Shown here: one piece after another, positions 17,219-49,354 of the stretch
How positions within the stretch are numbered: the first letter of the stretch is position 1
Layout: each line of letters opens with the position of its first letter
Source: Chitinophagales bacterium
GTDB taxonomy: Bacteria > Bacteroidota > Bacteroidia > Chitinophagales > UBA10324
DNA: 64,000 nt
Reading direction: 5' to 3'
Assembly: GCA_025056305.1 (NCBI GenBank)
Contig: JANWWJ010000025.1
Span: 57,476 to 121,475, forward strand
Notes under the pieces: model-generated
The model's input: only the letters and a program-made list of their open reading frames with translations
What the model was told of the DNA's origin: nothing
Databases searched by the model: none
Made by a program: the position numbers and the translations under genes

Positions 17219-17277
17219 CAACAAAATTTTGGAAAGCGAAGATAACAGTTTAGGAGGGTGCTTGGGGCAGGAAGATA

Positions 17278-21567: not shown

Positions 21568-21570
21568 GAT

Positions 21571-21578
21571 CAAAAATA
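21571..21578 (-). promoter_or_regulatory. Candidate -7 box TATTTTTG (minus strand), 3 nt upstream of the GEVED-protein ATG
   Basis: Exact TAnnTTTG match on the minus strand. Its position implies a leaderless or near-leaderless transcript if it is functional. Confidence 0.25.
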
Positions 21579-21628
21579 GGTCATTCCATCCGTGTTTGGG
21601 GTGCTTCCCGCCAGGTTTAAGAGCAGCA

Positions 21629-21636
21629 TAATTTTG
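21629..21636 (+). promoter_or_regulatory. Candidate -7 box TAATTTTG upstream of hflX
   Basis: Exact TAnnTTTG match 10 nt upstream of the ATG at 21646. It supports the shorter hflX start. Confidence 0.3.
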
Positions 21637-21645
21637 TATGGCAAG

Positions 21646-22830
21646 ATGCAGATTGCGACCCAAGTAAACGGACAAGAGCGGGCCATCCTAGTCGGTGTCG
21701 TTTTACCTGGTTACCATGAAGAGCAGATTCACGAGCACCTGCAAGAACTACAGTTTTTAGCTGAAACGGCTGGTGCCGTGACACTAAAAAAATTCACTCA
21801 GCGCCTGGCGGCACCAGATCCGCGCACCTTTATCGGGCGTGGCAAGGTGCAGGAACTGCGGCAGTACATAGAACGCAAACAAGTGGACCTCGTCATTTTT
21901 GATGACGACTTAAGCGGAACGCAACTTCACGCTTTGGAAAAGGAATTAAAGGTTAAAATTCTGGACCGCAGTACGCTGATCCTTGACATTTTTGCACGGC
22001 GCGCTCGAACCGCTCAAGCTAAAGCACAAGTAGAGCTGGCCCAACTCCAGTATTTATTGCCGCGCCTTAAAGGACTGTGGACTCACTTAGAACGCCAGCG
22101 TGGCGGTATCGGTATGCGTGGCCCCGGCGAAAAAGAAATTGAAACCGACCGCCGGCTTGTAAAACAGCAGATTTCCTTGCTGAAAAAACAATTGGAACGC
22201 ATCGATCGCCAGAACCGCACTCAACGACAGGAGCGGGGGGAATTGATCCGTGTTGCTTTGGTGGGCTATACCAACGTGGGCAAATCAACGCTCATGAATG
22301 CGCTCAGCAAGGCGCACGTTTTCGCCGAAAACAAGCTGTTTGCTACGCTGGATACTACCACCCGCAAAGTGGTTCTTGGCCGCATGCCGTTTTTGCTCAG
22401 TGACACAGTAGGCTTTATCCGTAAACTGCCGCACCACCTCATCGAAAGCTTCAAATCCACCCTCGATGAAGTGCGAGAGGCGGATTTACTGCTGCACGTT
22501 GTCGATTTATCGCATCCTCGATTTGAAGAACAAATCAGGACCGTTCAAGAGACCTTGCAAGAGCTGGGTGCTCAAGAAAAAAAGATGCTCATGGTGTTTA
22601 ATAAGCTGGATTTGTATGAACAGCAGATCATAGATCCCTACGTGCCTTTGCCGGTGCGACAGGAGTTGCTTCAGCAGATGCAAACCAGCCTTCGTCGCCA
22701 ATACCACGGCCATGCGGTTTTCCTTTCGGCTACTACCGGTCAAAATCTTAACGCGTTACGGGATAAGCTGTACGAAGAAGTCAAGTCACTTTATTTGGCG
22801 AGATATCCATATAAAGCCGAACTCTTCTAA
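21646..22830 (+). CDS. hflX: GTPase HflX
   Basis: G1 GYTNVGKST, G3 DTVGF and G4 NKLD, plus the HflX N-terminal domain (ERAILVGV...). The ATG at 21646 is preferred over the track start at 21592. Confidence 0.92.
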   Translation: MQIATQVNGQERAILVGVVLPGYHEEQIHEHLQELQFLAETAGAVTLKKFTQRLAAPDPRTFIGRGKVQELRQYIERKQVDLVIFDDDLSGTQLHALEKELKVKILDRSTLILDIFARRARTAQAKAQVELAQLQYLLPRLKGLWTHLERQRGGIGMRGPGEKEIETDRRLVKQQISLLKKQLERIDRQNRTQRQERGELIRVALVGYTNVGKSTLMNALSKAHVFAENKLFATLDTTTRKVVLGRMPFLLSDTVGFIRKLPHHLIESFKSTLDEVREADLLLHVVDLSHPRFEEQIRTVQETLQELGAQEKKMLMVFNKLDLYEQQIIDPYVPLPVRQELLQQMQTSLRRQYHGHAVFLSATTGQNLNALRDKLYEEVKSLYLARYPYKAELF

Positions 22831-22968
22831 AGCCTGTTTCTTCATTGAAGATGGTTCCGCACCCCTTGCCGATCAGCGGAATGACATACATTAATGATTC
22901 TTACATTCAATTTCTGATCTGTTTGGATGGGTGTTGTTGTATTTTCGTACTCCCACTTTTTTCGCTTC

Positions 22969-23565
22969 ATGAAAACCCACTTTTGGTCACTACCTGTTTC
23001 GGCGTTCTTTTTCGCAATGCTGGTACCTGCCCCGGCTACCGCTTTGGTGCATGAAATTGCAGTAAAAAATTTTGAATTCATTCAACCCTTTGATACTGTG
23101 CGGGTAGGCGACACCATTCGCTGGAAATGGTTGGAGGGGAACCACACGACTACCTCTAACGGCATTCCCGCAGGAGCCCAGCCATGGAATGAACTGCTCA
23201 CCCAACGCCATCCCGAGTTTACGTATGTGATAACAGTAGCCGGCCTGTATCAATACCTCAGCATCCCCTATGCACCCGTGATGGGTTCATCCTTCATAGC
23301 CATCGATGCCTCTGGCCTGGCAGACCCGCCCGTTATCGTTGGATGTTTTTGTGCGCAACAAACCTTGACTTTACAGCTCGCCCACGCACCAGCTCCCGGA
23401 ACAACGCTGCGCCTATTTAATCCGGCGGGGCAGCTCGTAACCACTCCGACACACCTAATGTCGGCAACCTTTCGCCTTGCTCTGCCCGATTTGAAAAAAG
23501 GTATTTGGATCGTCGAAACAAGCACGGCAAACCTTCGCACCAGCAGAAAAGTCTCCTGCCTTTAA
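22969..23565 (+). CDS. Small secreted cupredoxin-like protein with a T9SS-type CTD; the copper-ligand set appears degenerate
   Basis: Signal peptide MKTHFWSLPVSAFFFAMLVPAPATA. Plastocyanin-like core VRVGDTIRWKW..GNHTT...GLYQYLSIPYAPVMG. The C-terminal ~70 aa resemble a sorting domain (LRLFNPAGQLV...GIWIVE). Confidence 0.55.
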   Translation: MKTHFWSLPVSAFFFAMLVPAPATALVHEIAVKNFEFIQPFDTVRVGDTIRWKWLEGNHTTTSNGIPAGAQPWNELLTQRHPEFTYVITVAGLYQYLSIPYAPVMGSSFIAIDASGLADPPVIVGCFCAQQTLTLQLAHAPAPGTTLRLFNPAGQLVTTPTHLMSATFRLALPDLKKGIWIVETSTANLRTSRKVSCL

Positions 23566-25900: not shown

Positions 25901-28774
25901 TTATTGTTTTACAAAAGGCTGGGTCAGCTTGTATCCTCCGTTTTCCACCAACAACACATAGGCCCCTTTTTGCAGAGATGCCGTGGCAATGACCACCTGA
26001 GCATATCCCTCGGCTATTTCTTCTTCGCTTTGATAAACGATCCGCTCCAACAGATCATAGATGGTAATGCGCGTTGGGGCTGTTCCGCGTGCAATAAACC
26101 GCACAATCATTTGATGCTGCACGGGGTTCGGATACACGAAGAGATCCGTGGCTGTCGTCGTTTCCGTAAGCGCCTCTTGGACGGAAATGCGCGTCGGGAA
26201 GGCACTGCTACTCTTGTAAACGCGCAACCGATAGCAATTCACCGTATCAATGTTGATGCCGTCGTGCACGATCTTGATGTAATAAGATCCCTGAGCCAAG
26301 TTGTTGAGTACCACCGTGTCGGCCGTGGTACCTGGGTTTGATGAAACACCTATTTGATTTCCCTTTTTGTTCAGAATGGCTAAATCATAATTCACTGTCA
26401 ACTTATCTAAAATGAACATGTAGTTGGGTTCTGATGCTTTGGTCTTCACTTTGAAATAATCTTGATCTGTTGGGCCATCGATAACAGCGCTCCAACCATA
26501 GACGTTGGTGTTTAGGGAATTGTAGGCTTTCAGCTCAGGAGAATTCTTATTGTAATCGTCATTGGCGTCTTCATAAAGATCGAAGCAGGAGTTACCTGAG
26601 TGAAAACGATAGAGTAAGACATCGGCAGCGCCAGCGTTCTTAAACTGATAAGCATCAGCCGTTACAGGTAATTCGCCCCGCGTTTCTACGGCCAAAACGA
26701 TTTGATTGTTTGCATAAATCTGCACATCATCGCCTTCATCGGGCTTGTCGCTGCCCAAGTAGCTGCCCCACTGAAGCTGTCCGTCGCTGTTCCATTTAGC
26801 AAACATAGCATCAGAAGTAGAGCCCGGCTGCTTTTCGGGCATGAAGCCGTTGGGCGTCCCAATATTGGAAGTACTTTGGGCATCTCCGATAATGTAGAGG
26901 TTGCCGTTCGCGTCGATGTCCATACCGCGGCAAAACTCCGTTTTGTCCCCTCCATAGTAAGTACCCCACAAAAACTGACCTGAGTTCGTAAACTTCATCA
27001 GGAAGGCATCGTCGTTAGGTATTCCACTGCTTGAGTAACCGCCCCCCCAATTTTCCTGATGGGCCCCCGGCGAGGAAATACTGTCTACGCTCTGAGTATA
27101 ACCACTGACGTAAATGTTGCCCTGTGCATCAACCACGACGCCGCGGCCTCGATCATCTTTATTGCCCCCGATGTAGGTGCCCCATAAATAGTTGCCGTTG
27201 ACATCCCATTTGGCCAGAAATGCATCGATGAGGCTTCCTTTTGTTTTCTGCCAGGGGCTGTTCTTAATAAAATTGGTAGTGCTTTCGCAGGTTCCTGCAA
27301 CTAAAAAGTATGTTTTGTCTATGTCGAAATTGAGTTCATGTGCGCGGTCATCTCCATCCCCACTCCAATAGGTTACCCATACGGGCCAGCCGTTGGCATC
27401 AAAACGACCCAGCACAGCATCACCGTTGTTCCCTGCAACCGTCTGATAAGCACCAGGAGTAGCTATACCCGTTTCGCTGTTGGTCCAGCCACCGATAATG
27501 ATATGATAATCATCGGTGACAATGCCGTTACGCCAGTGTTCACGAGACTCTCCTCCGTAATAGGTGCTCCAGATCAGCTCCCCTTTAGGCTTCCACTTGG
27601 ATAACAACATGTCCCCTTTGGATTCCAGGATTTTGGTTTTGTAAGCGCCGGCCGTAGCCATCCCTGTATCCGAATCAGAGCTGCCGTAAACGTAGATGTT
27701 GTTGTCTTTGTCCAGCGTCAAGCCGAAGGGACCGTCTTTTCCTTTTTCCCCGAAGTAGGTGCCCCAAGCGATTTTGCCGTTTTCTTTGAATTTGCAGATG
27801 AAGATATCTGTTTTGTTCTTATACGTTACATCCCATGCCCCTTCCGTAGCAATACCGGTTGTGCTGTACGTGCTGCCGGTAAGAATGATCTTGTTGTTTT
27901 TATCCACCACCACTTCTGATTCGAAGATGGTTTCTTCATTTTCCCCTCCGTAAAAAGTGCCCCAAACCAAGGTGGGATCAATGACAATGGTTTGAGAAGG
28001 ATCGTATGCCGCCAGGTCATACGTGAGGCGAGGTCCGTTAAGCTTATAGGTGCAAGGAAGCGCCTGGCCGCTGGCATACACAAACGTGTAAGGGGCACCT
28101 TCGCGCACAAAGCCCCTGCTGGTGATGAGGTCCAGTGATCCATCATCACGGAGGTTAAAAGCGTGAACTCCTTGAAACAGCATACGGATGTCCGACGGGT
28201 TGCCGCCGGGATAAATGATCCATTCATAGCGCAACCACGCATCATCCTGATCACTGGGTCCGGCTATAAACAGCAAATCAATATTCGGATAGATGTTTCG
28301 GTACAGGATGCGGTCGTAACACGGCACATCACGTACCGGCTCGTGTTTGCTCAAGTTGAGGTAATAATGAAAGACAGTACCATTTTCCTCGGAGGTGATA
28401 ATTTCAGGATTGGGATTAGCTCCCTCCAACACCACATCTATGCGTGCTACATTGATGGTGGCTGCCTGCAAAGCATAAAAGCGATCTTCCTCGTATCGGG
28501 GGTTGAGGCCATCTTCCGAATAATCAAAATGGTTGATGATCTGAAACAGCTCATAACTAAAACTGTTTTTCTTGAGCTGCAGGTTGAAATCATCGGCCGA
28601 ATACATGTAGAGCACCTCGCCGTTAACCTCCCCATACTGATTTTTGATTTGCCCCAGGTTTTTGCGGAAGCCAGCAGCGTACATTGCTTCTTTGAATGAC
28701 TGCTGCGCGGCCACTGATACAGCAAAGACACTAAGCGAGGCTAGTGTCAAAACGACGCCACAGAACTTATTCAT
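25901..28774 (-). CDS. T9SS cargo: seven-bladed SBBP-type beta-propeller repeat protein with a PPC-like domain and a type-A CTD (paralogue A)
   Basis: Signal peptide. Seven recurrences of a W-[GSV]-[ST]-Y-x-[GS] motif (LVWGTFYGG, IAWGTYFGE, LIWSTYYGG, PVWVTYWSG, YLWGTYIGG, FLWGTYYGG, LQWGSYLGS). PPC-like NYDLAILNKKGNQIG...GSYYIKI. CTD VYPNPVQHQMIV...GAYVLLV. Confidence 0.8.
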   Translation of the reverse strand: MNKFCGVVLTLASLSVFAVSVAAQQSFKEAMYAAGFRKNLGQIKNQYGEVNGEVLYMYSADDFNLQLKKNSFSYELFQIINHFDYSEDGLNPRYEEDRFYALQAATINVARIDVVLEGANPNPEIITSEENGTVFHYYLNLSKHEPVRDVPCYDRILYRNIYPNIDLLFIAGPSDQDDAWLRYEWIIYPGGNPSDIRMLFQGVHAFNLRDDGSLDLITSRGFVREGAPYTFVYASGQALPCTYKLNGPRLTYDLAAYDPSQTIVIDPTLVWGTFYGGENEETIFESEVVVDKNNKIILTGSTYSTTGIATEGAWDVTYKNKTDIFICKFKENGKIAWGTYFGEKGKDGPFGLTLDKDNNIYVYGSSDSDTGMATAGAYKTKILESKGDMLLSKWKPKGELIWSTYYGGESREHWRNGIVTDDYHIIIGGWTNSETGIATPGAYQTVAGNNGDAVLGRFDANGWPVWVTYWSGDGDDRAHELNFDIDKTYFLVAGTCESTTNFIKNSPWQKTKGSLIDAFLAKWDVNGNYLWGTYIGGNKDDRGRGVVVDAQGNIYVSGYTQSVDSISSPGAHQENWGGGYSSSGIPNDDAFLMKFTNSGQFLWGTYYGGDKTEFCRGMDIDANGNLYIIGDAQSTSNIGTPNGFMPEKQPGSTSDAMFAKWNSDGQLQWGSYLGSDKPDEGDDVQIYANNQIVLAVETRGELPVTADAYQFKNAGAADVLLYRFHSGNSCFDLYEDANDDYNKNSPELKAYNSLNTNVYGWSAVIDGPTDQDYFKVKTKASEPNYMFILDKLTVNYDLAILNKKGNQIGVSSNPGTTADTVVLNNLAQGSYYIKIVHDGINIDTVNCYRLRVYKSSSAFPTRISVQEALTETTTATDLFVYPNPVQHQMIVRFIARGTAPTRITIYDLLERIVYQSEEEIAEGYAQVVIATASLQKGAYVLLVENGGYKLTQPFVKQ

Positions 28775-28910: not shown

Positions 28911-31766
28911 TTACATTTTTATAAATCGGAATAAGGCATGCCTATGAGCATCATGGAGGCGGAGCACATAGATGCCGGCAGGCAGTTCTGCCACTGAAAT
29001 GTGCACGGCTGAAGCAAATCCATGAGGCATTTGCGCATCACCAGCTTGCAAAAGCCTACCGCTCAAGCTGATGATGGCATACTGAACCGAGCCGCTGAAC
29101 GCAGAGGTAGGTACGTTCAAGTACTCTGTAGCCGGATTGGGATACAACCACGGCATTGCGTCCGATAAACCTGTATGGGTGTAAATAATGCCACCAGGCA
29201 AAGCCGTATCGCTGTACATCACCTGCAAGCGATAGCAGTTGAGGGCATCATACAGAGTGTCATTATGAATAACCTGTAGGTAGAAACTTAACGGAGGTAA
29301 GGCATTAATGATCAGCGTGTCTGCATCGGTGCCGGCAGTCGAAGTCTGATAAATGAGATATCCCAAAGGATCATATAAAGCCAGGTCATAATTCACCGTG
29401 GCATCTCGGACGATCATTTGCAGGTTAGGATAGGTGGGCGTGGGGGTGAGCACGAACCAGTCGGCATCGATGCTGTCCGGCACGCAACCGTTCACTCCAT
29501 AAATAGTAGAAGAGCCCAGCAAGAAGGCCGGCGCCCCCTTTGCTGTAGCGAGGCTTTCATTGGGTTCAAAGGGATCATAGCAATTGGAAAATGGAGAAAA
29601 CTTATATACAATAGTTTCGCTATAACCACCATTAAAGACGGATTGGTGCGTATTTGGGGTTACCAGCATATCTCCTGCAGTGGGGCGGCCGATCACATAG
29701 ATGAATCCGCTGGTATCAACATCTAAGTCTTCAAATTGCTGACCGACCGGACCACCCCAATATGTCGTCCAATCGGGCAAGCCGTCAAAACCAAATTTGC
29801 CGATGAAACAGTCGGCAGCGGTATTTTTCACCGGCTGCATCGCATGCCCGTAGATCATGTTGTCTGGACTATTTGTGGAGCCCACCACATAATAAAATTT
29901 GTGCTTGCGATCGATATCGCCTCCCCAGAGATTTTCTATAGCAGATCCGCCATAGTAAGTCCCCCACAATCGCATACCGGAACTGTCGAACCGAACCAGG
30001 TAGTTGTCTTCATTGGGGCTTCCTGGATTTGATACTTTACGGGTAGGCTGCAGACTTGTTGGCGTAGCAATTCCAGTGTCACTATTGGTAAAGCCCGCCA
30101 GAAATATGGTACCTGTGGAATCTACCTCCACGCTCCGCGTACGATCTTCTCCCTCGCCTCCATAATAGGTGCACCATAAACGATGACCCGCCGTGTCAAA
30201 CTTGCATAAGAATGCATCAGCATTGGAGCCTCCAAAAACAGTCTGATGTGCTCCCGGTGTTGCAATTCCTTTCTTGCTCGATGTGGTACCGGCAGCGTAG
30301 ATATGGCCAAAAAGGTCCAAGGTTATGGCATGAAACCGATCCACGCCTGAATCACCTAAATACGTTGCCCAAATGCGCTTACCCGAGGGGCTGAACTTGG
30401 CTATAAAGCCATCATCGTAATTGTGTTTAACTGTTTGAAAAGCACCTGGTGTAGCGATTCCGGTGTCGCTATAGGTCGTGCCGGCAAGATATAGATAGCC
30501 GGCTGCATCGCAGATCATACTGCGGATATTTTCACTTCCCGCTCCTCCATAATAAGTGGACCACAACAGCATGCCATTGCTGCTGAATTTGGCAAATAGG
30601 TTGTCGGCTGCTGTTCCGGAGATGGCTGTCTTGTGCGCTCCAGCCGTAGCCATACCGCTGCTTTGGGTGTTTCCTCCAATAAAAACGTTTTCCGAAGGAT
30701 CTAATGCTCCGGCATAACAGTAATCCTTATCAGAGCCGCCGAAATATGTGGCCCAGATGATGTTGCCTTTAACATCAAACTTAGCCAAATAGTAATCATA
30801 AATTCCTCCGGCAAACGAAGTTTGATGGGCATTGGCCGTGGCAATGAATTGCGAACTGATGGTATGCCCACAGATATATACTTGTTGGTCTTTAGCAGCA
30901 TAGATCTCCACCGGTTCGTCTCCGCCACCACCTCCATAGTAAGTTCCCCAAATTATGTTCGGATCGATGATGAGGAATTTTTCTTTGTCGTAAGCAGGGG
31001 TAACAAAGGCTCGTTGCGTGCCGTTAAAGGCGAAAGCCCCTCCCGACAAAGGCTGCCCGAAATCGGTAAAAAACAAAGGTCTGGTTTCCGTGACAGTTCC
31101 CAGCGGGGTGTGCACGACGAAGTCCTCTGCGCCGTTGAGGCCTAAAGAGGTGGCGCCGGTGTAAATCCAACCGATAAGAGAAGGGTCGGCTCCCGGCCGC
31201 ACTACAAATTCGTATCTTGGAAAATTATATTGATCTTTTGGTGCATAAAAAATAAGATCAATACCTGGATAAAGCTGTTCGTAGACCAATTGCTGATAAG
31301 CCGGGACTGATTCAAAGCGGTTTTGCTCGACAGGGGCAAAATAGTAATGAAACACTGCTTGTGCCGGGCGTAGGGCTTTGAGCTGCACCGCCGGCGAACT
31401 GCCGGAAAAGTGAACATCTACGCGATGCACATAAAGTGTACCGGCCAAAGGCTGATCTTCGGCTCGCTGCCAGCTAGCATCGGATTCGTTTCGCCCATGC
31501 GATTGGGGTTGCACAGACCACAGCTCGTAACTAAATCCGTCGGCGCGGAAATGCATGCGAAATGCTCCATCGCTATACAGGTATTGAACGGCATGGTTAA
31601 CCGCTCCGTGCTGATCGCGGAATTGACCTTTATTTTGAATAAATAACCGGGCCGCACATGCAAACGATGCGGCTGAAGCCGATGTTCTTGCATAGGCTAT
31701 GGGAAGACTGCCCACGTATGCTGCAACAAGAAACAACAAAAAACAAAAAGTGCGGAAAAATTGCAT
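28911..31766 (-). CDS. T9SS cargo: seven-bladed SBBP-type beta-propeller repeat protein (paralogue B)
   Basis: Colinear with paralogue A. Seven W-x-T-Y-x-G-[GD] motifs (IIWGTYYGG, IIWATYFGG, LLWSTYYGG, RIWATYLGD, RLWCTYYGG, RLWGTYYGG, PDWTTYWGG). PPC-like NYDLALYDPLGYLIY. CTD LYPNPATEYLNV...GIYVLRL. Confidence 0.8.
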   Translation of the reverse strand: MQFFRTFCFLLFLVAAYVGSLPIAYARTSASAASFACAARLFIQNKGQFRDQHGAVNHAVQYLYSDGAFRMHFRADGFSYELWSVQPQSHGRNESDASWQRAEDQPLAGTLYVHRVDVHFSGSSPAVQLKALRPAQAVFHYYFAPVEQNRFESVPAYQQLVYEQLYPGIDLIFYAPKDQYNFPRYEFVVRPGADPSLIGWIYTGATSLGLNGAEDFVVHTPLGTVTETRPLFFTDFGQPLSGGAFAFNGTQRAFVTPAYDKEKFLIIDPNIIWGTYYGGGGGDEPVEIYAAKDQQVYICGHTISSQFIATANAHQTSFAGGIYDYYLAKFDVKGNIIWATYFGGSDKDYCYAGALDPSENVFIGGNTQSSGMATAGAHKTAISGTAADNLFAKFSSNGMLLWSTYYGGAGSENIRSMICDAAGYLYLAGTTYSDTGIATPGAFQTVKHNYDDGFIAKFSPSGKRIWATYLGDSGVDRFHAITLDLFGHIYAAGTTSSKKGIATPGAHQTVFGGSNADAFLCKFDTAGHRLWCTYYGGEGEDRTRSVEVDSTGTIFLAGFTNSDTGIATPTSLQPTRKVSNPGSPNEDNYLVRFDSSGMRLWGTYYGGSAIENLWGGDIDRKHKFYYVVGSTNSPDNMIYGHAMQPVKNTAADCFIGKFGFDGLPDWTTYWGGPVGQQFEDLDVDTSGFIYVIGRPTAGDMLVTPNTHQSVFNGGYSETIVYKFSPFSNCYDPFEPNESLATAKGAPAFLLGSSTIYGVNGCVPDSIDADWFVLTPTPTYPNLQMIVRDATVNYDLALYDPLGYLIYQTSTAGTDADTLIINALPPLSFYLQVIHNDTLYDALNCYRLQVMYSDTALPGGIIYTHTGLSDAMPWLYPNPATEYLNVPTSAFSGSVQYAIISLSGRLLQAGDAQMPHGFASAVHISVAELPAGIYVLRLHDAHRHALFRFIKM

Positions 31767-40677: not shown

Positions 40678-43600
40678 TTACTTTTTCACGATCCGGTGCA
40701 GCTCATGCATTCCGCTCTGATGGAAAGTAACGGCAACCAAGTAAATACCCGGTTGTCCTTCCAGCAGAGCATCTACCTGATATTCCCCCTGCTGCAGTTC
40801 CTGACTAAACCGATATACGCTTTTCCCCAAAACATCGGTGATGTCCACCGAAACTTCCTGGGTCACAGGAGTACGTATGAGTAAATGCATGGTGCCTTCG
40901 GTCGGGTTGGGCTGAACGGTTACGTTGGGATATTGCTGATGGCTGTTATCCAGAACGATGACAGAGGAGTAGGCCACACTGCCGTCTTCGTCAACCTGTT
41001 GCAGCCGATAATAATTGAGCCGAGGCTCTGGTCTTAGGTGCAAATGCGAATATTGTTGCGGCTCAGTGGTCGTGCCCGCTCCCCAAATGATGGCTAAAGG
41101 CCTAAAATGAGTGCCTTCCAAAGAATGCTCCAGAACAAAATGGCTGTTCTGGTGTTCGGAAGCCGTGTGCCAAGATAGGAGATTACCTTCAGCTACCACT
41201 GAACCCTCGAAAGAAACCAACTCCACAGGCAAATTCAGCGAAGCCTGCGCAGTGCCAAAATCAGAAAAAGCAGTGAGCCCCGTGCGCACGACTTGATTGA
41301 CCGTACTGGCAGCACAGTTCCCCATCAAGCCCCAGCCTCCTCCTGCATTTCGCATCACCGTCCAATTAAGTGCCCCGGTGGCATTGGTATAAGTACCTGC
41401 CGTATTGTACAGCGTAATCGTGTATTGGCCGCTGGTCATAGCTGGGGTACTGGTGATGCTCCAATAACCATTGTCCAGAGCAGGCATGTTATAATTAAAC
41501 CCGCAATCATTAACACCTAATGCTGGAGGTACGATGGCATAGCTGCTGAAGCGCACCAACAAGTTGGTTACGTTGGTGGGGGAAGTAAAATTGACATTGA
41601 CGCGCTGAAAGCCCTTGCCCGAAGACGACTGGCCGACGGGGAAATTATACGAACCGGTACTGTTTACCGACCGCCGCAAATTGCCATCCACGTAACTGGA
41701 TGCACTTCCACCGTTAACTGATGTAGTAGCCGGGTTTGTCACATTAACCTCATGCGTATTGGTAGCGATACGGCCATTGGTGAGCGTAAGCGTGCCGGTC
41801 ACATTGAGATTGCCGGCAAGGTTAACACTACCCGATCCGGTCTGGTTGATCCAAACGTTGTACAAGTTTAGGGTACCCCCCGGTGTATAGGTCTGCGTTG
41901 AGGAGCCCCGGAACTCTAACGTGCCGGTACCGACATTGGTGAACGTAGTTCCGCCCGCAGCATTCGTGAAATTGCCGCTGAGCCGTATGTATTGACCGTT
42001 GGCATTAAAAATGGATGTTGCATTAGTTGTGGTAAAGTTGCCTGCTATATCCAACGGCACATTGGTAATGACCGTTCCGGTTGTTTTCGTAATGGTTACA
42101 TTTCCCAGGGCGTTGGTATTGGTGAAATTGCCATTGAGGTACTGCGTGCCGCTACCGTTAAATAAAACCGTAGAGGTGGGTGAGGCGATCAAGCTTCCGT
42201 AATTGTTGAAATTTCCGCAAATAGTCAAGGTGACTCCGGCGTTTAGTGTCAAGGAAGCCCCCGGAGCGATCGTCAGGTTACGGACCGTGGTGTTGGTTGC
42301 GAGCACTGGTTGATTTCCAGAGGGATTTATGATTGCGTCAACGCTACAGGAAGGTGGCCCTACACAGGTAGACCAGTTCCCTAACTGGACAAAATCTGTG
42401 TTCATGTAACCGATCCACGTAGCCACGTTGCCGCCAAAAGTGCACGTGGAGCTCGAGAAATCTATGGTGTATGGAGCGCCGAAACCATTCCAGTTTGTAA
42501 CGCAAAGCAGGTAAGATTCTCCTGCGGCTACTGTAAGAGGAGCCTCAAAATTTGCCGGATTCCCGCCGGGCGGTATAACGCTCTGCATGCCGGTAAGACC
42601 ACCGGCGGTGGCATTCCAGTTGCAACGCACCGGTGGCAGAAGGTTGTTGGTAATGTCGGAAACGGTGGCATTAGTAATATTCCATAAGATCCAATCATAA
42701 AAGCCAGCAGCATTAGCTGAAAAAGTCCACGCCAGTGTTCCGCCCGTACTGATGTTCAAGCGAAAGAAGGTTGGATGAATTTCTCCGTTAAGCAAGCATC
42801 CTGCATTAGGAGGATTGGGATTAACATTGGGATTTGACACCGAACCCGGAGGAGGAATTTCTGCTATGGACCCGCAACCAATCGTTCCCATCACGGAGCT
42901 AAAAACGGGAACACACATTTCAATACCTGCACGACCTTCCGTCTTGAGTCCCGTCACATTTCCCGGTGCTATATCTACAACGATACCATAGCTTCCAAAA
43001 TTCATATCGTAGCCATCCAGCCTGAGGTAATAAGTAGTACCCGGAACCAAACCTACATAGGTAGGACCAGGGCATCCTACTGTAGCACTGCTCACACATG
43101 AGCCCGCAACAGCGGTTGGCGCATTGCATGAGCCCGTATAAAGTTCAATTTGGGCCTGAAGCAGAGTACCGCTCATAAAGCCAACATGAACCTGTCCGGA
43201 CGAGGGTGCCGTAAACGAGTACCAGACGGTATTCAATGAGCCTGTTATCCAGCATAGGCCACCAGCACCTTCCCCTGCACCGGTAGCCAAAGAATTGTCA
43301 TCAGCAAAAGGTCGGCCCATCTGTAACGGGATAGCTCCGCACGCATTATCGTTAGGAATAGCAGAAGCAGGGGCAGTAATGGTTAAATCGTAAGTAGCAC
43401 AGCCATATAATCCATCAATCAAAATATAGTAATTGGAGTCAGCGACTACGTTGAAGGAAACGTTTTTATCGGCCGCCTGGTTTTGATTGTATGCCAGCGG
43501 TATGCTTACCCCGCACGTAAGCGATGAAACCGGACAATTCCTGTAAACCATGATTGCTGAGTGCGGGTTGCTGCAATTGCGCAGTTGTGCGGTAACAATT

Positions 43601-44382
43601 CCTGCAGAGGGGGCCTTGAAATGATAAACCACTTCCTCGCTGGCCAAGTAGCTGGCGCTTCCATTCACCACAGTGTTGGCACTGGTCAGATCATTAAGCT
43701 GCCCGCAGCTCGTAGTGTTAATGATGGTATAGGGCAATGTGCTGATGGAGACAAAACCTGTTCCTACTTGAGAGCCACATCCAGAGCTTACCAGCGAAAC
43801 GTCATCGATAGCAGCAGCGGGATTGTTGGATGTGGTGTTGTTGGTCCAGGTAAAGATCAAGCGATAGGTACCGGGGGCTACGTTGCATTTGTTGAAAGTA
43901 AATGTTGTCCAGGAAGGATAATTGTATAAACCTGTCGGAGGTGTTAAGATTTCTGCTGGAGCTACGGGAGCCGAACCTGCTGTAGGGGTGTAGGTGCTTG
44001 GGGCCAAATACACCCGTATGTGCGAGCCACTGTTTCCCTGAACCTTCAAACGAAACGATAAAGCCAGATTAGGCTCAGAAGCAGTTACGGTAAAATTAGC
44101 GCTGTAAACATGGATGACTGTACTGAAGGTGGCGTAATTGTTGTTGGTGCACGCGTTGGTGGAGGAAACGTACATGCACCGCGCACCTGTATAACCTGTT
44201 ATAGTACCGTTAGCAGTGCCGGCACACCAAAAATTAAATGGGGAATTTACTGCCGTCCAACCATTAGCACTTAGGGTGGTACCGTTTTCCAAGCCCCCAT
44301 TGCCATTGGGGTCTATCAACACTGCAGCACGAAGAGCACTTGCAAGAAAAATAAGCCCCACACACCACAGCTTCCGCATCAT
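40678..44382 (-). CDS. Giant T9SS cargo protein (~1234 aa), paralogue 1: N-terminal jelly-roll (GGxENG..W), two Cys-rich PPC-like modules, Cys-rich domain, parallel-beta-helix-like repeats, LPVELVSF domain, type-A CTD
   Basis: Signal MMRKLWCVGLIFLASALRA from the ATG at 44382; the track start at 44400 is TTG. CTD VQPNPTEGTMHLLI...GIYLVAV. Colinear with the upstream 1504-aa ORF. Confidence 0.8.
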   Translation of the reverse strand: MMRKLWCVGLIFLASALRAAVLIDPNGNGGLENGTTLSANGWTAVNSPFNFWCAGTANGTITGYTGARCMYVSSTNACTNNNYATFSTVIHVYSANFTVTASEPNLALSFRLKVQGNSGSHIRVYLAPSTYTPTAGSAPVAPAEILTPPTGLYNYPSWTTFTFNKCNVAPGTYRLIFTWTNNTTSNNPAAAIDDVSLVSSGCGSQVGTGFVSISTLPYTIINTTSCGQLNDLTSANTVVNGSASYLASEEVVYHFKAPSAGIVTAQLRNCSNPHSAIMVYRNCPVSSLTCGVSIPLAYNQNQAADKNVSFNVVADSNYYILIDGLYGCATYDLTITAPASAIPNDNACGAIPLQMGRPFADDNSLATGAGEGAGGLCWITGSLNTVWYSFTAPSSGQVHVGFMSGTLLQAQIELYTGSCNAPTAVAGSCVSSATVGCPGPTYVGLVPGTTYYLRLDGYDMNFGSYGIVVDIAPGNVTGLKTEGRAGIEMCVPVFSSVMGTIGCGSIAEIPPPGSVSNPNVNPNPPNAGCLLNGEIHPTFFRLNISTGGTLAWTFSANAAGFYDWILWNITNATVSDITNNLLPPVRCNWNATAGGLTGMQSVIPPGGNPANFEAPLTVAAGESYLLCVTNWNGFGAPYTIDFSSSTCTFGGNVATWIGYMNTDFVQLGNWSTCVGPPSCSVDAIINPSGNQPVLATNTTVRNLTIAPGASLTLNAGVTLTICGNFNNYGSLIASPTSTVLFNGSGTQYLNGNFTNTNALGNVTITKTTGTVITNVPLDIAGNFTTTNATSIFNANGQYIRLSGNFTNAAGGTTFTNVGTGTLEFRGSSTQTYTPGGTLNLYNVWINQTGSGSVNLAGNLNVTGTLTLTNGRIATNTHEVNVTNPATTSVNGGSASSYVDGNLRRSVNSTGSYNFPVGQSSSGKGFQRVNVNFTSPTNVTNLLVRFSSYAIVPPALGVNDCGFNYNMPALDNGYWSITSTPAMTSGQYTITLYNTAGTYTNATGALNWTVMRNAGGGWGLMGNCAASTVNQVVRTGLTAFSDFGTAQASLNLPVELVSFEGSVVAEGNLLSWHTASEHQNSHFVLEHSLEGTHFRPLAIIWGAGTTTEPQQYSHLHLRPEPRLNYYRLQQVDEDGSVAYSSVIVLDNSHQQYPNVTVQPNPTEGTMHLLIRTPVTQEVSVDITDVLGKSVYRFSQELQQGEYQVDALLEGQPGIYLVAVTFHQSGMHELHRIVKK

Positions 44383-44425
44383 CGCTAGAGCTCTTGCCAA
44401 CTGAACAAAAGCGAAATTCAGTGAA

Positions 44426-44433
44426 CAAAGCTA
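44426..44433 (-). promoter_or_regulatory. Candidate -7 box TAGCTTTG (minus strand) in the 60-nt gap between the two giant paralogues
   Basis: Exact TAnnTTTG match 44 nt upstream of the ATG at 44382. It suggests the downstream paralogue can be transcribed on its own. Confidence 0.3.
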
Positions 44434-44442
44434 AGAAACTTC

Positions 44443-47400
44443 CTATTGTAAGACCAGCTTAGCCAACACTAATTGATCGCGTTCTGTCGCACGCAAACAC
44501 AGCTGATAAATGCCCGCAGGAAGTCCTTTTAAGCTTGCCCGGTAATCAACTACACCGGTGGCCTTTATCTTGTCGCTGATCACTGTCTTACCGAACAGAT
44601 CAGTAATTTCCAAAAGCACGTGTCCTTCGTATTCTTTGTGCAAGGTGATGGTAAGGTCTCCCGAGGTGGGATTTGGTGACAATTGCAACAAAGCCAAGGG
44701 CTTCATCTTGGTCTCTAAGACAATGACATGAGAATACGTTACATGGCCGGAGAAGTCTTCCTGTTGCAGACGATAATAATTATTACCGGCCAAGGGTTGA
44801 CGATCCCAGAAGGTATAGTCGTTCTGTTGGGTAGAGGTACCTTGACCTCTAACGGTACCTATACGGCTGAACACATGACCATCCGAAGAACGCTCAATAT
44901 GGAAGTAGGCGTTGTTTTCCTCGGATAATGTTTGCCATTGCAGGAGATTTCCGTCCTCATACACAGATCCGGTAAAAGACACCAGCTCTACAGGAAGATT
45001 TGTAGAGGATTGAGCCGTACCAAAGTCGCTGAAGCCAACGAGGCCTGTTCGCACTACTTGACCGATGGTACTGGTGGCACAGGTGCCGTTTAGATGCCAA
45101 CCCGTGCCATTGTTTTTCATAACGGTCCACTGAGTTGCACCACCATTGTTGGTATAGGTGCCTGCTGTGTTGAACAGCGTTACCGTGTAAGCCCCTGAAG
45201 TCATCGGCGCACTGCTTACGGCCGTCCAATAGCCATTGTTGAGTGCTTGCATGTTGTAATTGTAGCCACAGTCGGAGACGTTAAGAGGCCCAGGTACGGT
45301 GACATAAGGCTGGAAGCTGACCAACAAATTGGCAAAGCTTACCGCTGAAGTAAAGTTGAAATTGATCTTTTGAAATCCTTTGCCAGAGGAATGATGGCCT
45401 ACGGGGAAATCATAAGATCCCGTAGCGGCAATGTTGCGCCGCAGGTATCCATCCACATAACTGGCAGTGCTGCCTCCCGTGATAGCAGTGGTGGATGTGT
45501 TGCTTACATGGACTTCATTAAGTCCCGTAGTAATTCGGCCACTGGTTAGCGTGAGGTTGGAAGTCACGTTTAAATTGCCGTAAAGCACAACAGCGGTACC
45601 GGCAGGCTTGTCTATGACAACCGTGCCTATGTTGATGGTACCCCCCGGACTGTAATTCTGATTGTTTGCTCCATTAAACGTGATAGTGCTGCTGCCTGTG
45701 CCCGTCAGGGTCGTTGCCCCTGAATGGATTGTGACGTTTCCACCAATCTTGAGGTTTTTATTGTTAAGGTTAATGACACTGGTCGCATTGGATGTGGTCA
45801 AATTGCCGGCAATTTCCATATCCTGCATGATATCGACTGTTCCGGAGGTCTTGGTTACGACCACGTTACCCAGTTTGCTGGTGCCGCTGAAGTTGCCGGT
45901 AACCGCCTGCGCTCCAGTACCGATGAACTGTATTGTAGAAGAGGGCGAGGCTATAATGGTTCCGTTATTGGTGAGATTTCCGCAAATGCTGAGGGTGACG
46001 CCAGCATTAATGGTGAGGGTTGCCCCAGGTTCAATGGTGAGGTTACGCACCGTCGCATTGCTGCCAATGATGGGCTGATTTGCCGCCACGTCAATGATTG
46101 CATCGATTCCGCACGATGGAGTACCACACCCCGCCCAATTGGCCGTCTGATTCCACGCTGTTCCTACGGCTCCGGTCCACACCGCAGTTGTACTACTTCC
46201 GATCACGCACGTCGAATTACTGAAATCAAGATTGTAAGCAGGAATTACATAGCTCCAATTGGAAATACCCAGGATGTAAGTCTGACCTGCCGTAACGTTG
46301 AGCGGCTGTTCGAAATTACCCGGCACTCCACCAGGGGGAACGGTACTTTGCATACCTGTCATGCCAATGGACGAAGCATTCCAATTACAACGTACCGGTG
46401 GCAGCGTGTTGTTTTTTATACCGGCACAACCTTGAGTGGTGATATCCCATAAAAGCCAATCAAAAAATCCAGTTCCTGTACCACTCAAGGTCCAGGCCAA
46501 TGTCCCGCTGGTTTGGATTTGCAGTTTGAAAAAACGTACATTCAGCTCCCCACTGAGCCAACACCCCCAATTGCTTGAAGCTGGGTTTGTGCACGGATTG
46601 CTTACGGTACAGGTTCCCGTTACATCTTGAATGTTACCACAACCATTTGAATTGTCGGCATTGGTGAACGTAGTACCACATACGTCCAATGCACCTTCGC
46701 AGTCGGCTGAAGTGGGCGTAAAGGGCCCCGTACCATTGTCTACGACAATTTGATAATAACCTACGGCATCGCCAGAACCATCCAAACGCAGGTAATAGGT
46801 GGCCCCCGGAGTAAGACCCGTGAACAGGGCACCGGGGCATGCCAAGGTAGTACTGTTGGCACAACTGATGTAAGTCAGGCTGTTACATGAACCGCCATAT
46901 AGTTGAATAGCTGCGTTGACAAGGCTGCCGTTTTGGAAGCCCACTTTCACCGATGAGGAGGGGGCTACGAAAGAATACCACACCGTATTTAAGGCACCTC
47001 CTCCAAAGCAATTGGTATTCGAAGGCTCGCCGGTACCACTGCTGCAGGAGTTGTTGCCTGCCGTAAGCACACCAATAGGTAGATTGATGGCATTGCAGGG
47101 CAAATCGTTGGGCTGACCCGAACCCATGGAGATTACACTCAAATCGTAGGTGATAGCACTGGGCGGAGCCCATGAATCAACAATAATGTAATAAGTGCCG
47201 GGCCCCGGCAAGCTTACTTGTCTGGTGCCGGGCCCACCAAACCAACCCAAACAAATCCCGGTACCCGTACCCGGACAAGCACTATAAACCATGAAGCCGC
47301 CAAAGTTGCTACTCATATTGGACAGCGTGACTGAAATACATTCAGCACTGGTGGTAGTGTAGGCATATACCCGATCTTCACCAGATTCGTAGATACTTCC

Positions 47401-48957
47401 GCACGAGCCCAAAACAGCATTGTTGTAATCATTGCCCGCACAGGCAGTGGTTTGCCCATACGCATAATACGGCAGCGTGATGGGAATGGCATTGGCACAC
47501 GTGGTTCCTACTGTAGTAGAGCCCGCCGTAATGGAAATGTCGTAAGTAACCGAACTGGGCGGTGACCACGAATCTACAATGATGTAATATGTTCCGGCGG
47601 CAGGGAGCGTTACAGAATGAGCGCCTGGGCCATTGAATGTTGCCACACAAATACCTGTACCACTGCCCGGACAAGCACTATACACTTGACAACCGATCAG
47701 ATTAGAACTGACGTTTGACAGCGTGATGACGATACACTGAGGTCCTGAAGCGGTGTAAGAATAAACCCGATCTTCTCCTGACTGATAGTTGCTCACACAT
47801 GCGCCTAACACACCACTATGGTAGTCATTGGTGGCACAACTTGTGGACTGAGCCGTGGCTGTAAACGGCAGGGTCACCGGTATGGCATTAGAGCACACCG
47901 TCCCGCTTGCCGCACCCGGGGCTGATATTGATATGTCATAAGTAAATGCCGTACCACCCAGAGTATTTCCATCTACCACCAAATAGTAGGTAACGCCTGC
48001 GGTTAAACTTGCACAAATGGACTTACCGGTGGAAAAACTTTGAGAGAAGGCTAAACATGTTGCCCCACTGCACGAAGTTGTGGCCGGGCATGCAGAGTAT
48101 AGATAAATGGCTGAATACCACGAGCTGCTGTTCGATATGGTTGCCGTAACAGTGCCGCTTGTGGCAGGTGTAAAGATGAAAACTTCATCTTCGCAACCAT
48201 AGTAGGTGTTGGTGCCACACACGTAGGCTGTGGTAGAGGTAAGATCATTCACTGCACCTGCAGTGCTGCGCCCAATGCTGGTGTAAGGCAGTGAGGTGAC
48301 GTTTACTACGCCCGTTCCCAAGACAGAAGAGCAGGCAGTAGCCCCTCCTGAACTTACCACTGAGATACTATCGATTGCAGCTGGTGGTTGTGTTCCCAAT
48401 GAGTTGTTGTTTTTCCAGGTAAACACCAATCGCTTGGTCCCGCTCTGACAAGAAACGGTTAGCGTGGTGGTTTGCCAGGAAGAAAAACCCTTCAAGGTAT
48501 TGCCTAATGCGTAGGTGTTCACTGAATTGCTGCCGGCCGTTACGGGCGTTCCTGCAGGGCAGAGCGCAACTTGAAGGAAATCGGGGCCCTCACCATAGTT
48601 TTTCCATCTAAACTTGATGGTTAATGTGGTATGACCTGAAGGAATGGTAATGTCGCGATAAAAGTGAACTGTGGAGTTTACCGTGGTGCTGTACGTGTGG
48701 GTTGCACCGGCGGGATCAGAAGAAATGTAAGCACAACGAGCACCCTGATAACCCGTGGCTGCCGTACCTAAAAACCATTTGTTGGTTTGTGTACCGTTGA
48801 CTTCAACCCAGCCATTGGCAGCCAAGGTCGTTCCGTTTTCAAAGCCTCCGTCGCCCGCAGGGTCAACCAGCAATGTCTGGGCATCAACCCTTGGCAAGAA
48901 AGCCCAAACCAGCCCGAAGCATCCTAAGGTGGCTAAACGTGTTAATTTGCAGGCCAT
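44443..48957 (-). CDS. Giant T9SS cargo protein (1504 aa), paralogue 2: same architecture as 40678-44382 but with four Cys-rich PPC-like modules
   Basis: Signal MACKLTRLATLGCFGLVWAFLPRVDAQ. N-terminal DPAGDGGFENGTTLAANGW. LPVELVSFTGS...NNYYRLQQEDFSG domain. CTD LSPNPTSGDLTITL...GIYQLCL. Confidence 0.8.
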   Translation of the reverse strand: MACKLTRLATLGCFGLVWAFLPRVDAQTLLVDPAGDGGFENGTTLAANGWVEVNGTQTNKWFLGTAATGYQGARCAYISSDPAGATHTYSTTVNSTVHFYRDITIPSGHTTLTIKFRWKNYGEGPDFLQVALCPAGTPVTAGSNSVNTYALGNTLKGFSSWQTTTLTVSCQSGTKRLVFTWKNNNSLGTQPPAAIDSISVVSSGGATACSSVLGTGVVNVTSLPYTSIGRSTAGAVNDLTSTTAYVCGTNTYYGCEDEVFIFTPATSGTVTATISNSSSWYSAIYLYSACPATTSCSGATCLAFSQSFSTGKSICASLTAGVTYYLVVDGNTLGGTAFTYDISISAPGAASGTVCSNAIPVTLPFTATAQSTSCATNDYHSGVLGACVSNYQSGEDRVYSYTASGPQCIVITLSNVSSNLIGCQVYSACPGSGTGICVATFNGPGAHSVTLPAAGTYYIIVDSWSPPSSVTYDISITAGSTTVGTTCANAIPITLPYYAYGQTTACAGNDYNNAVLGSCGSIYESGEDRVYAYTTTSAECISVTLSNMSSNFGGFMVYSACPGTGTGICLGWFGGPGTRQVSLPGPGTYYIIVDSWAPPSAITYDLSVISMGSGQPNDLPCNAINLPIGVLTAGNNSCSSGTGEPSNTNCFGGGALNTVWYSFVAPSSSVKVGFQNGSLVNAAIQLYGGSCNSLTYISCANSTTLACPGALFTGLTPGATYYLRLDGSGDAVGYYQIVVDNGTGPFTPTSADCEGALDVCGTTFTNADNSNGCGNIQDVTGTCTVSNPCTNPASSNWGCWLSGELNVRFFKLQIQTSGTLAWTLSGTGTGFFDWLLWDITTQGCAGIKNNTLPPVRCNWNASSIGMTGMQSTVPPGGVPGNFEQPLNVTAGQTYILGISNWSYVIPAYNLDFSNSTCVIGSSTTAVWTGAVGTAWNQTANWAGCGTPSCGIDAIIDVAANQPIIGSNATVRNLTIEPGATLTINAGVTLSICGNLTNNGTIIASPSSTIQFIGTGAQAVTGNFSGTSKLGNVVVTKTSGTVDIMQDMEIAGNLTTSNATSVINLNNKNLKIGGNVTIHSGATTLTGTGSSTITFNGANNQNYSPGGTINIGTVVIDKPAGTAVVLYGNLNVTSNLTLTSGRITTGLNEVHVSNTSTTAITGGSTASYVDGYLRRNIAATGSYDFPVGHHSSGKGFQKINFNFTSAVSFANLLVSFQPYVTVPGPLNVSDCGYNYNMQALNNGYWTAVSSAPMTSGAYTVTLFNTAGTYTNNGGATQWTVMKNNGTGWHLNGTCATSTIGQVVRTGLVGFSDFGTAQSSTNLPVELVSFTGSVYEDGNLLQWQTLSEENNAYFHIERSSDGHVFSRIGTVRGQGTSTQQNDYTFWDRQPLAGNNYYRLQQEDFSGHVTYSHVIVLETKMKPLALLQLSPNPTSGDLTITLHKEYEGHVLLEITDLFGKTVISDKIKATGVVDYRASLKGLPAGIYQLCLRATERDQLVLAKLVLQ
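47131..47511 (-). repeat. Internal tandem protein-module repeat, copy 2 (aa 483-609)
   Basis: GTTCANAIPITLPY...SGEDRVYAYT...VYSACPGTGTGIC...GTYYIIVDSWAPPSAITYDLSVIS. Confidence 0.75.
47524..47904 (-). repeat. Internal tandem protein-module repeat, copy 1 (aa 352-478 of the 1504-aa ORF)
   Basis: GTVCSNAIPVTLPF...SGEDRVYSYT...VYSACPGSGTGIC...GTYYIIVDSWSPPSSVTYDISITA. About 60 percent identical by eye to copy 2. DNA identity is clearly lower, so the duplication is not recent. Confidence 0.75.
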
Positions 48958-48988: not shown

Positions 48989-49354
48989 CTATCGTTGGCG
49001 CGGTTGAAACTGATTGGGGCTCAGAAAATCATGACCCAAAGCAGTCATAACCTGCTCTATAGTTCCATACTTTTCCCGAACCCAAAAATTTGCTTCAGCC
49101 AACTTAGTGATCAGCGTATGCTTAGAGGTTTGCTGTTCATCTATTCGAAGCAGTATCACTTGATGAACGGGAGATAAGGCTACGACCTCAACTCCGGCTG
49201 TAGCTTGTAGGAACATAACTGCCTGCCTAAGCTCTTCAGGACTCAGACGCTCAAATTCCAGAATCATTTCATCTGGTCTGAGCTCCTGCGCCTGTGCAGG
49301 CAGGAGCGCACCACTTACTACCAATACTGCTAACCAACGTCGTAAATGTTTCAT
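48989..49354 (-). CDS. Small secreted hypothetical protein (121 aa)
   Basis: Signal peptide MKHLRRWLAVLVVSGALLPAQAQ. No recognisable motif. It ends 31 nt upstream of the 1504-aa cargo gene on the same strand. Confidence 0.55.
   Translation of the reverse strand: MKHLRRWLAVLVVSGALLPAQAQELRPDEMILEFERLSPEELRQAVMFLQATAGVEVVALSPVHQVILLRIDEQQTSKHTLITKLAEANFWVREKYGTIEQVMTALGHDFLSPNQFQPRQR

Follow-up and report, generated by a model that had tools for sequence, protein, structure and literature searches.

In a 64,000-nucleotide stretch of DNA from a Chitinophagales bacterium (GenBank assembly GCA_025056305.1, contig JANWWJ010000025.1; the whole stretch is called the window here, and positions are counted from its first letter), two neighbouring genes, A and B, encode giant proteins with the marks of type IX secretion system (T9SS) cargo. 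Judged by their sequences, A and B are paralogous: their likeness is far beyond chance (46% identity over 1076 aligned residues in BLASTP, E = 0). As the initial annotation of the region had anticipated, no catalytic motif could be found; neither the whole proteins nor the profiles of their domains led to an enzyme family in Pfam, NCBIfam or PDB. On balance, we read A and B as non-enzymatic surface binding proteins or adhesins exported by the T9SS. Their secretion, anchoring and binding function, and separate transcription of B, are what we infer from sequence.

Both open reading frames (ORFs) are intact and lie on the minus strand, in agreement with the initial description of two same-strand ORFs of 1234 and 1504 aa separated by 60 nt. 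Taken mechanically, the ORF of B covers 40678..44400 with an upstream TTG start (1240 aa); we used its first ATG. The product of B is identical to the NCBI entry 'MAG: hypothetical protein NZL95_04700 [Chitinophagales bacterium]', where MAG stands for metagenome-assembled genome. Domains were cut according to the coverage of B by homologues, and one hidden Markov model (HMM) was built per domain (D1 to D8, D8 being the C-terminal sorting domain, CTD). The features of the pair are as follows.

44443 to 48957, minus strand: gene A, ATG start, 1504 aa, arranged as signal peptide, D1, D2, D2, D2, D3, D4, D5, D6, D7 and CTD (ORF, translation and domain HMM map).
40678 to 44382, minus strand: gene B, first ATG, 1234 aa, arranged as signal peptide, D1, D2, D3, D4, D5, D6, D7 and CTD (ORF, translation and domain HMM map).
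44383 to 44442, minus strand: intergenic gap of 60 nt between the stop of A and the ATG of B, holding a -7-like box.
44426 to 44433, minus strand: the -7-like box TAGCTTTG, inside the gap.
43783 to 44322, minus strand: D1 of B (residues 21-200), N-terminal, jelly-roll-like and MAM-like; equivalent in A at 48343-48879.
43369 to 43782, minus strand: D2 of B (residues 201-338), Cys-rich PPC/GBD-like sandwich; three copies in A at 47125-48342.
42967 to 43368, minus strand: D3 of B (residues 339-472), GBD_T9SS_assoc-like module; equivalent in A at 46732-47124.
42433 to 42966, minus strand: D4 of B (residues 473-650), Cys-rich 'PPVRCNWNA' domain; equivalent in A at 46198-46731.
41713 to 42432, minus strand: D5 of B (residues 651-890), N/T/G-rich repeat region, a putative beta-solenoid stalk; equivalent in A at 45478-46197.
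41242 to 41712, minus strand: D6 of B (residues 891-1047), 'GSYNFPVG' domain, modelled as a beta-sandwich; equivalent in A at 45007-45477.
40939 to 41241, minus strand: D7 of B (residues 1048-1148), 'LPVELVSF...YYRLQQ' Fn3-like domain; equivalent in A at 44704-45006.
40681 to 40938, minus strand: D8 of B (residues 1149-1234), T9SS type-A CTD, with PF18962 above cut-off; equivalent in A at 44446-44703.

The measured identity falls within the 45-55% first estimated by eye; for the N-terminal 470 residues BLASTP gives 36%. All of the motifs quoted in that first description were present (DP.G.GG.ENGTTL.ANGW, PPVRCNWNA, NATVRNLTI, GSY.FPVG..SSGKGFQ, LPVELVSF and YYRLQQ), and the N/T/G-rich region, put there at ~300 aa, proved to be ~240 aa long. 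The two proteins had also been called colinear. This is true of the order of their domains but not of their number, as the domain HMMs found three copies of D2 in A and one in B with the rest colinear; the two extra D2 modules account for the 270-aa difference in length. Charged residues make up only ~8% of each protein. N-x-S/T sequons are modestly enriched in A and B (34 against 24.0 expected from shuffles, and 32 against 22.4; z ~2.3). D[ST][AILVMT], the O-glycosylation motif of Bacteroidota, is all but missing (one in A with 4.7 expected, none in B with 2.5 expected). Neither whole protein matched a PDB sequence, and neither matched an NCBIfam family at E<=1.

Signal peptides were read directly from the translations: MMRKLWCVGLIFLASALRAA followed by VL in B (signal peptide residues 1-20), and MACKLTRLATLGCFGLVWAFLPRVDA followed by QT in A. 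When whole proteins were compared with Pfam, the CTD alone exceeded its cut-off, and did so narrowly. Por_Secre_tail (PF18962; cut-off 27) scored 28.5 bits at residues 1158-1222 of 1234 in B and 30.1 bits at residues 1428-1493 of 1504 in A, bearing out the type-A CTD of the initial annotation; the CTD motifs PNPT.G, D..GK and G.Y are visible in both. The D8 HMM also picked up three further cargo ORFs of the window by their CTDs, and with Pfam and the D8 HMM together four other window ORFs were found to carry a CTD. A review of the system (PMC10202324) describes T9SS effectors as either released or surface-anchored.

The four domains behind the signal peptide resemble binding modules to differing degrees. 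For D1, which had been described as MAM-like, sub-threshold matches to Pfam MAM (PF00629) were found in 3/20 homologues (best E 4.3e-5), but none in A or B themselves; one homologue had a CBM_6 match (E 0.13), and D1 found no PDB sequence. The PPC-like modules of the initial annotation correspond to D2, where GBD_T9SS_assoc was detected in 9/18 homologue copies and PPC in 5/18, supporting the resemblance, though always below threshold. One D2 homologue had a CBM_35 match (E 8e-4), and again there was no PDB sequence match. D3 of B reached 23.1 bits for PF23759, under the cut-off of 27, and this family is recorded for many of the homologues. A profile-profile alignment of D2 with D4, which pairs up corresponding structural motifs, was weak (hhalign E 5e-4, probability 31%).

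D4 itself gave no Pfam match and no PDB sequence match in profile searches. An exhaustive profile search of sequences clustered at 50% identity detected 3891 cluster representatives with the domain at E<=1e-3, of which 2494 reach E<=1e-10; by this count, D4 is a large, widespread and un-named domain family lacking a Pfam model. It models as a PPC/collagen-binding-like beta-sandwich (AlphaFold2, predicted local distance difference test score (pLDDT) 72.6, predicted template modelling score (pTM) 0.77). The best Foldseek matches were the collagen-binding domains (CBDs) of ColH and ColG, the C-terminal domain of C. perfringens enterotoxin and PPC (E 2e-3 to 2e-2, template modelling (TM) score 0.35-0.6), the target-normalised TM being 0.5-0.6 for the CBD and PPC entries 3jqw, 2o8o, 1nqj and 5sv5. 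Unlike those domains, with which it shares no sequence-level match, D4 bears a Cys-rich N-terminal extension of ~60 aa, has four invariant Cys and is not joined to a peptidase. It also forms the N-terminal tip of shorter T9SS cargo, where PKD or Ig spacers and then a CTD of type A or type B come after it and no enzyme domain is present.

D5 is unusual in composition, with 52.5% N+T+S+G, 4.2% charged residues and 12 NxS/T sites. Short alternating-hydrophobic strands recur every 8-14 residues, and hydrophobicity autocorrelates weakly, with a peak at lag 28 (r = 0.19). D5 would be a beta-solenoid, a fold that this strand spacing fits and does not prove. Searches with its profile yielded no significant match, either in PDB (best E 0.16, LptA) or in Pfam (G8 at E 0.028 in 2/15 members), and G8 was also seen below threshold in D5 of A in the whole-protein Pfam search. 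The invariant positions of D5 are W, P, G, L, T and I. Of its charged residues, D682 and K766 alone are at least 70% conserved in an alignment of 30 diverse sequences, and no recognisable catalytic motif includes either of them; this speaks against a catalytic beta-helix.

The AlphaFold2 model of D6 is all-beta and of high confidence (pLDDT 95.3, pTM 0.90). No significant Pfam or PDB sequence match was obtained for D6, no PDB fold match at E<=1e-3 and no match in BFVD. The top Foldseek hits, with E values that are not significant (0.05-0.4), TM ~0.5 and 9-16% identity, were the ZU5, NLRP1-FIIND and GAIN sandwiches known from ankyrin, UNC5, NLRP1 and adhesion G-protein-coupled receptors. In contrast to these, whose autoproteolytic motifs are HL-S/T and SF-S, the conserved columns of D6 hold no such motif; only P25, G27, W84 and W127 are conserved in a 23-sequence alignment. 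Autoproteolysis, suggested by the ZU5/GAIN likeness, was considered for D6 and rejected as a working claim, there being no HL-S/T or F-S site and no conserved Ser/Thr/Cys nucleophile motif. On its model, D6 is a confidently folded beta-sandwich without a significant solved relative. The HMM and structure searches that the initial annotation had advised for the PPVRCNWNA and GSYNFPVG domains thus ended in beta-sandwich models for both and in no characterised homologue by sequence. Taking D4, D5 and D6 together, invariant positions are mainly occupied by C, G, W, P, N and T, not by residues of catalytic type.

For D7, the profile gave a borderline match (E 0.0013, 22 bits) to residues 197-266 of PDB 5z06 (BDI_3064), a segment that we take to be Fn3-like. 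No NCBIfam model matched D7, and Pfam fn3 was not matched in A or B. Altogether D4, D5, D6 and D7 match no Pfam or NCBIfam model.

The distribution of these domains was mapped on 190 proteins, made up of the top 150 D4 representatives and the homologues found in searches with B and with the D4 alignment. The search with B scored only the 8000 candidates sharing most words with it; A, at 46% identity, was not among the matches listed, an absence that is uninformative here. At least 77 of the 190 proteins have the core D3-D4-D5-D6-D7-D8, preceded by D1, D2 and D3 modules in varying numbers and orders. The shorter combinations D6-D7-D8 and D7-D8 were also found behind other passengers. The initial annotation had been unable to assign the architecture to a known function. 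The architecture is not unusual: beside the shared core, D4 occurs in ~3,900 clusters, and the window contains a second tandem pair of cargo genes.

A pattern scan built from ten D6 sequences and applied to one genome per species returned 74 D6-encoding loci (L003-L076), all in MAGs and none from a cultured isolate. They come from Chitinophagales, Saprospirales, Flavobacteriales (including Crocinitomicaceae), Sphingobacteriales, Bacteroidales and unclassified Bacteroidota. Three of the 74 are labelled Competibacteraceae, Synechococcus and Hydrocarboniphaga, probably by mis-binning. Gene contexts vary and are mostly housekeeping. Within +/-10 kb, 60 of 76 loci contain a single copy.

We found the pair to be syntenic and intact in two further genomes, GCA_053487875.1 (L001) and GCA_025057275.1 (L002), which agrees with the view that both copies have been kept. 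The shared order is recA, DUF4293, thiolase, aminotransferase, small ORF, A, B and mreDCB. Both frames are uninterrupted in the window genome and in L001; L002 has a complete A, and its B is truncated only where the contig ends. Between the window and L001, A is 74% and B 62% identical, B being the faster-evolving of the two, and all A/B cross-comparisons lie at 47-48%. In a neighbour-joining tree of the D4-D7 core (200 bootstraps), A and B each formed a clade in 200/200 replicates and grouped together in 140/200, with the single-copy lineage L004/P0004 as their sister group. Given the full support of both clades and the single-copy sister, the tree places the duplication within this lineage and before the three genomes split. 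Two other tandem pairs (L025 and L062) are independent recent duplications, each with 200/200 bootstraps, and the L027 pair consists of distant paralogues.

Compared domain by domain, A and B are 65% identical in D6, 53% in D3, 51% in D5, 49% in D7, 47% in D4, 42% in D1, 39% in D2 and 26% in the CTD. D6 is the most conserved module between the paralogues, and D1 and D2 are the least similar upstream of the CTD. The analysis of nonsynonymous over synonymous substitution rates (dN/dS) along the alignment, proposed initially as a way to find the diversifying modules, was carried out by the Nei-Gojobori method. The ratios could not be estimated, with dS saturated in almost every per-domain comparison, so only identity and dN are usable; it is the per-domain identities that place the greatest divergence upstream of the CTD in D1 and D2. 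For the A and B copies dN is 0.09-0.33, which, with dS saturated, points to purifying selection on both. Close orthologues differ in another way, their CTD and Fn3-like domain diverging far faster than the passenger: between A of the window and A of L002, identity is 44% in D8 and 61% in D7, against 85-96% in D1-D6. Relaxed constraint on a cleaved signal would be one possible cause, recombinational replacement another.

As to expression, the Bacteroidota -7 consensus is TAnnTTTG, and the box TAGCTTTG in the A-B gap fits it. The sequence is identical in L002, and A..TTTG is retained in L001. TAnnTTTG is under-represented in the window (26 matches vs 40.7 +/- 6.1 in shuffles). By eye, matches also stand just upstream of several ORF starts (28872, 31772, 50583, 52308 and 60424). 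Scans of the window for sigma-70 promoters and terminators gave counts at or below shuffle expectation, and the terminator scan found no terminator-like site in the A-B gap. The initial annotation took the box as a sign that B is expressed independently. The box is indeed there, and the sign for such expression is this motif, which L001 keeps only in part. An internal promoter for B is plausible from the sequence, and read-through into B from A, and from the small ORF upstream of A, is equally possible.

In the reading that we favour, the Sec signal peptide would take A and B across the inner membrane, and the T9SS would then recognise the type-A sorting domain D8 and export it through the outer membrane, after which D8 would presumably be cleaved off, leaving the mature proteins either attached to the cell surface or released. 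The solenoid-like D5, the beta-sandwich D6 and the Fn3-like D7 would form a stalk or display scaffold. The MAM-like D1, the PPC/GBD-like D2 and D3 and the PPC/collagen-binding-like D4 would form a ligand-binding head in which the number and order of modules vary. A and B would have arisen by the lineage-specific tandem duplication. The head is where the two differ most, and A has three copies of D2, suggesting two binding specificities on one scaffold.

Several observations weigh against this reading. The NCBIfam scan gave no match to the T9SS sorting-domain model (TIGR04183) in A or B, a miss that may reflect speed filters together with a borderline, divergent CTD. PPC (PF04151), GBD (PF23759) and MAM all stay below the Pfam cut-offs in A and B themselves. 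Solved folds match D4 weakly (best E 1.8e-3, TM ~0.5), and two segments of the D4 model are of low confidence. The neighbouring genes are housekeeping (purH, mreBCD, thiolase, recA) and offer no clue to function. Finally, literature searches gave no paper on the family or on GBD_T9SS_assoc; the origin of all 74 loci from MAGs explains why the family has remained unstudied.

We considered whether A and B could instead make up a two-component surface layer or coat, like the TfsA/TfsB S-layer of Tannerella forsythia, with their domains serving lattice contacts. There, tfsA and tfsB are adjacent genes. TfsA and TfsB measure 133 and 151 kDa without signal peptides, bear CTDs, need the T9SS for S-layer formation and also mediate adhesion and haemagglutination (PMC4175972). 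A and B are likewise two large CTD proteins of a similar size class, they have very few charged residues and are rich in N/T/S/G, and the pair has been retained together in three genomes, next to the cell-shape genes mreBCD. However, TfsA/TfsB are heavily glycosylated, whereas the O-glycosylation motif is almost absent from A and B, and no sequence likeness to any PDB chain, the sole check made for a relation to TfsA/TfsB, was detected. Single copies at 60/76 loci, and in the nearest outgroup L004/P0004 as well, mean that a two-protein lattice is not a property of the family, and variable head arrays suit binding better than a lattice. We regard a surface layer as unlikely.

An array of CBM-like modules followed by a beta-helix-like region is also a common layout of carbohydrate-active enzymes, so that A and B could be secreted polysaccharide-degrading enzymes, with D5 as a catalytic right-handed beta-helix of pectate-lyase, GH28 or PL type and D1-D4 as carbohydrate-binding domains. 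The CBM_35 and CBM_6 matches in single homologues of D2 (E 8e-4) and D1 (E 0.13) and the weak G8 matches in D5 go in this direction. Against them stand the absence of any lyase or hydrolase family in Pfam and PDB, for the whole proteins and for the D5 profile, the scarcity of charged residues in D5 (just 4.2%) with D682 and K766 its only conserved ones and both outside catalytic motifs, and flanking genes that, as far as scanned, are housekeeping and bear no sign of a polysaccharide-utilisation locus. An enzymatic role is therefore very improbable in our view. We give even less credence, indeed hardly any, to the idea that one copy is a decaying or silent duplicate of a functional other. B does evolve faster (62% identity to the L001 orthologue, vs 74% for A) and relies on read-through from A or on the putative internal promoter. 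Yet both frames are open over 3.7 and 4.5 kb here and in L001, B of L002 being cut by the contig end only, the family HMMs give strong scores for each of the eight domains in A and in B, and dN of 0.09-0.33 with dS saturated indicates purifying selection on both copies.

A and B can be compared with other exported proteins of the phylum. They share with T9SS type-A cargo, such as RgpB and HBP35 of P. gingivalis, a signal peptide and a C-terminal beta-sandwich sorting domain of ~80 aa, but their passenger has no protease or other enzyme domain. The gliding adhesins SprB and RemA of Flavobacterium are likewise very large, repetitive and non-enzymatic T9SS-exported surface proteins (reviewed in PMC10202324). 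These differ in having a type-B CTD (CHU_C/TIGR04131) and a PorP/SprF-like partner gene. A and B have a type-A CTD, and no PorP/SprF-like gene was seen among the ten flanking ORFs scanned.

Those ten ORFs, which include unassigned small ORFs, comprise purH, an OmpA-family gene, mreB, mreC and a probable mreD on one side, and a 121-aa secreted ORF, a class-V aminotransferase, a thiolase and recA on the other. No RNA family of Rfam was found in the 64-kb window. One neighbour could be linked to the pair:

48989 to 49354, minus strand: ORF of 121 aa carrying a signal peptide, 31 nt upstream of A and possibly co-transcribed with it as a partner (translation).

This ORF had no Pfam match and is kept at the same position in L001, L002/L003 and L004 (phmmer E 1e-38 to 1e-10). 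By eye it looks HMA/ferredoxin-like without a CxxC motif. As a family-wide partner it was rejected, since its homologues occur only in the close clade L001-L004 and the small ORFs upstream at L078 and L079 are unrelated. A more speculative proposal, which we rate as quite unlikely, is that D5-D6-D7-CTD is an undescribed dedicated T9SS display scaffold, that D6 is a new sandwich family, distantly ZU5/GAIN-like at best, that docks on a conserved surface partner or processes the protein, and that A and B, possibly with the 121-aa protein, co-assemble in this lineage into a two-component surface structure like TfsA/TfsB.

Other cargo genes were noted elsewhere in the window. A second tandem pair of T9SS cargo paralogues (25901-28774 and 28911-31766, both minus strand, 957 and 951 aa) combines DUF7948, SBBP beta-propeller repeats and Por_Secre_tail. 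A 1465-aa cargo protein at 17278-21675 (minus strand) has GEVED, Ig_7 (CHU_C-associated) and a CTD. Its gene adjoins that of a 730-aa protein with DUF5689, fn3 and two PLD-like (PLDc_2) stretches (15032-17224, minus strand). A 215-aa mechanical ORF at 22918-23562 (plus strand) matches the CTD HMM with its C-terminus (E 3e-4). The GEVED cargo gene and the second tandem pair show that cargo genes, and tandem pairs of them, are common in this genome.

A and B are thus genes of an ordinary kind, giant modular T9SS cargo, from a widespread and uncharacterised family, and we saw nothing mechanistically surprising in them. What was a pair that could not be assigned is now a defined family, with a variable binding-type sandwich head on a conserved core of ~760 aa, and D4, the D5 region, D6 and D7 are domain families lacking a Pfam or NCBIfam model. 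The main interest lies in D6, with its confident fold and no solved relative, and in D4, a very common head domain of T9SS cargo. The practical value is in annotation through new domain models and in candidates for binding assays, with no new mechanism implied. Large T9SS cargo proteins of unknown function contribute substantially to the surface proteome of environmental Bacteroidota, and they probably set what these cells stick to.

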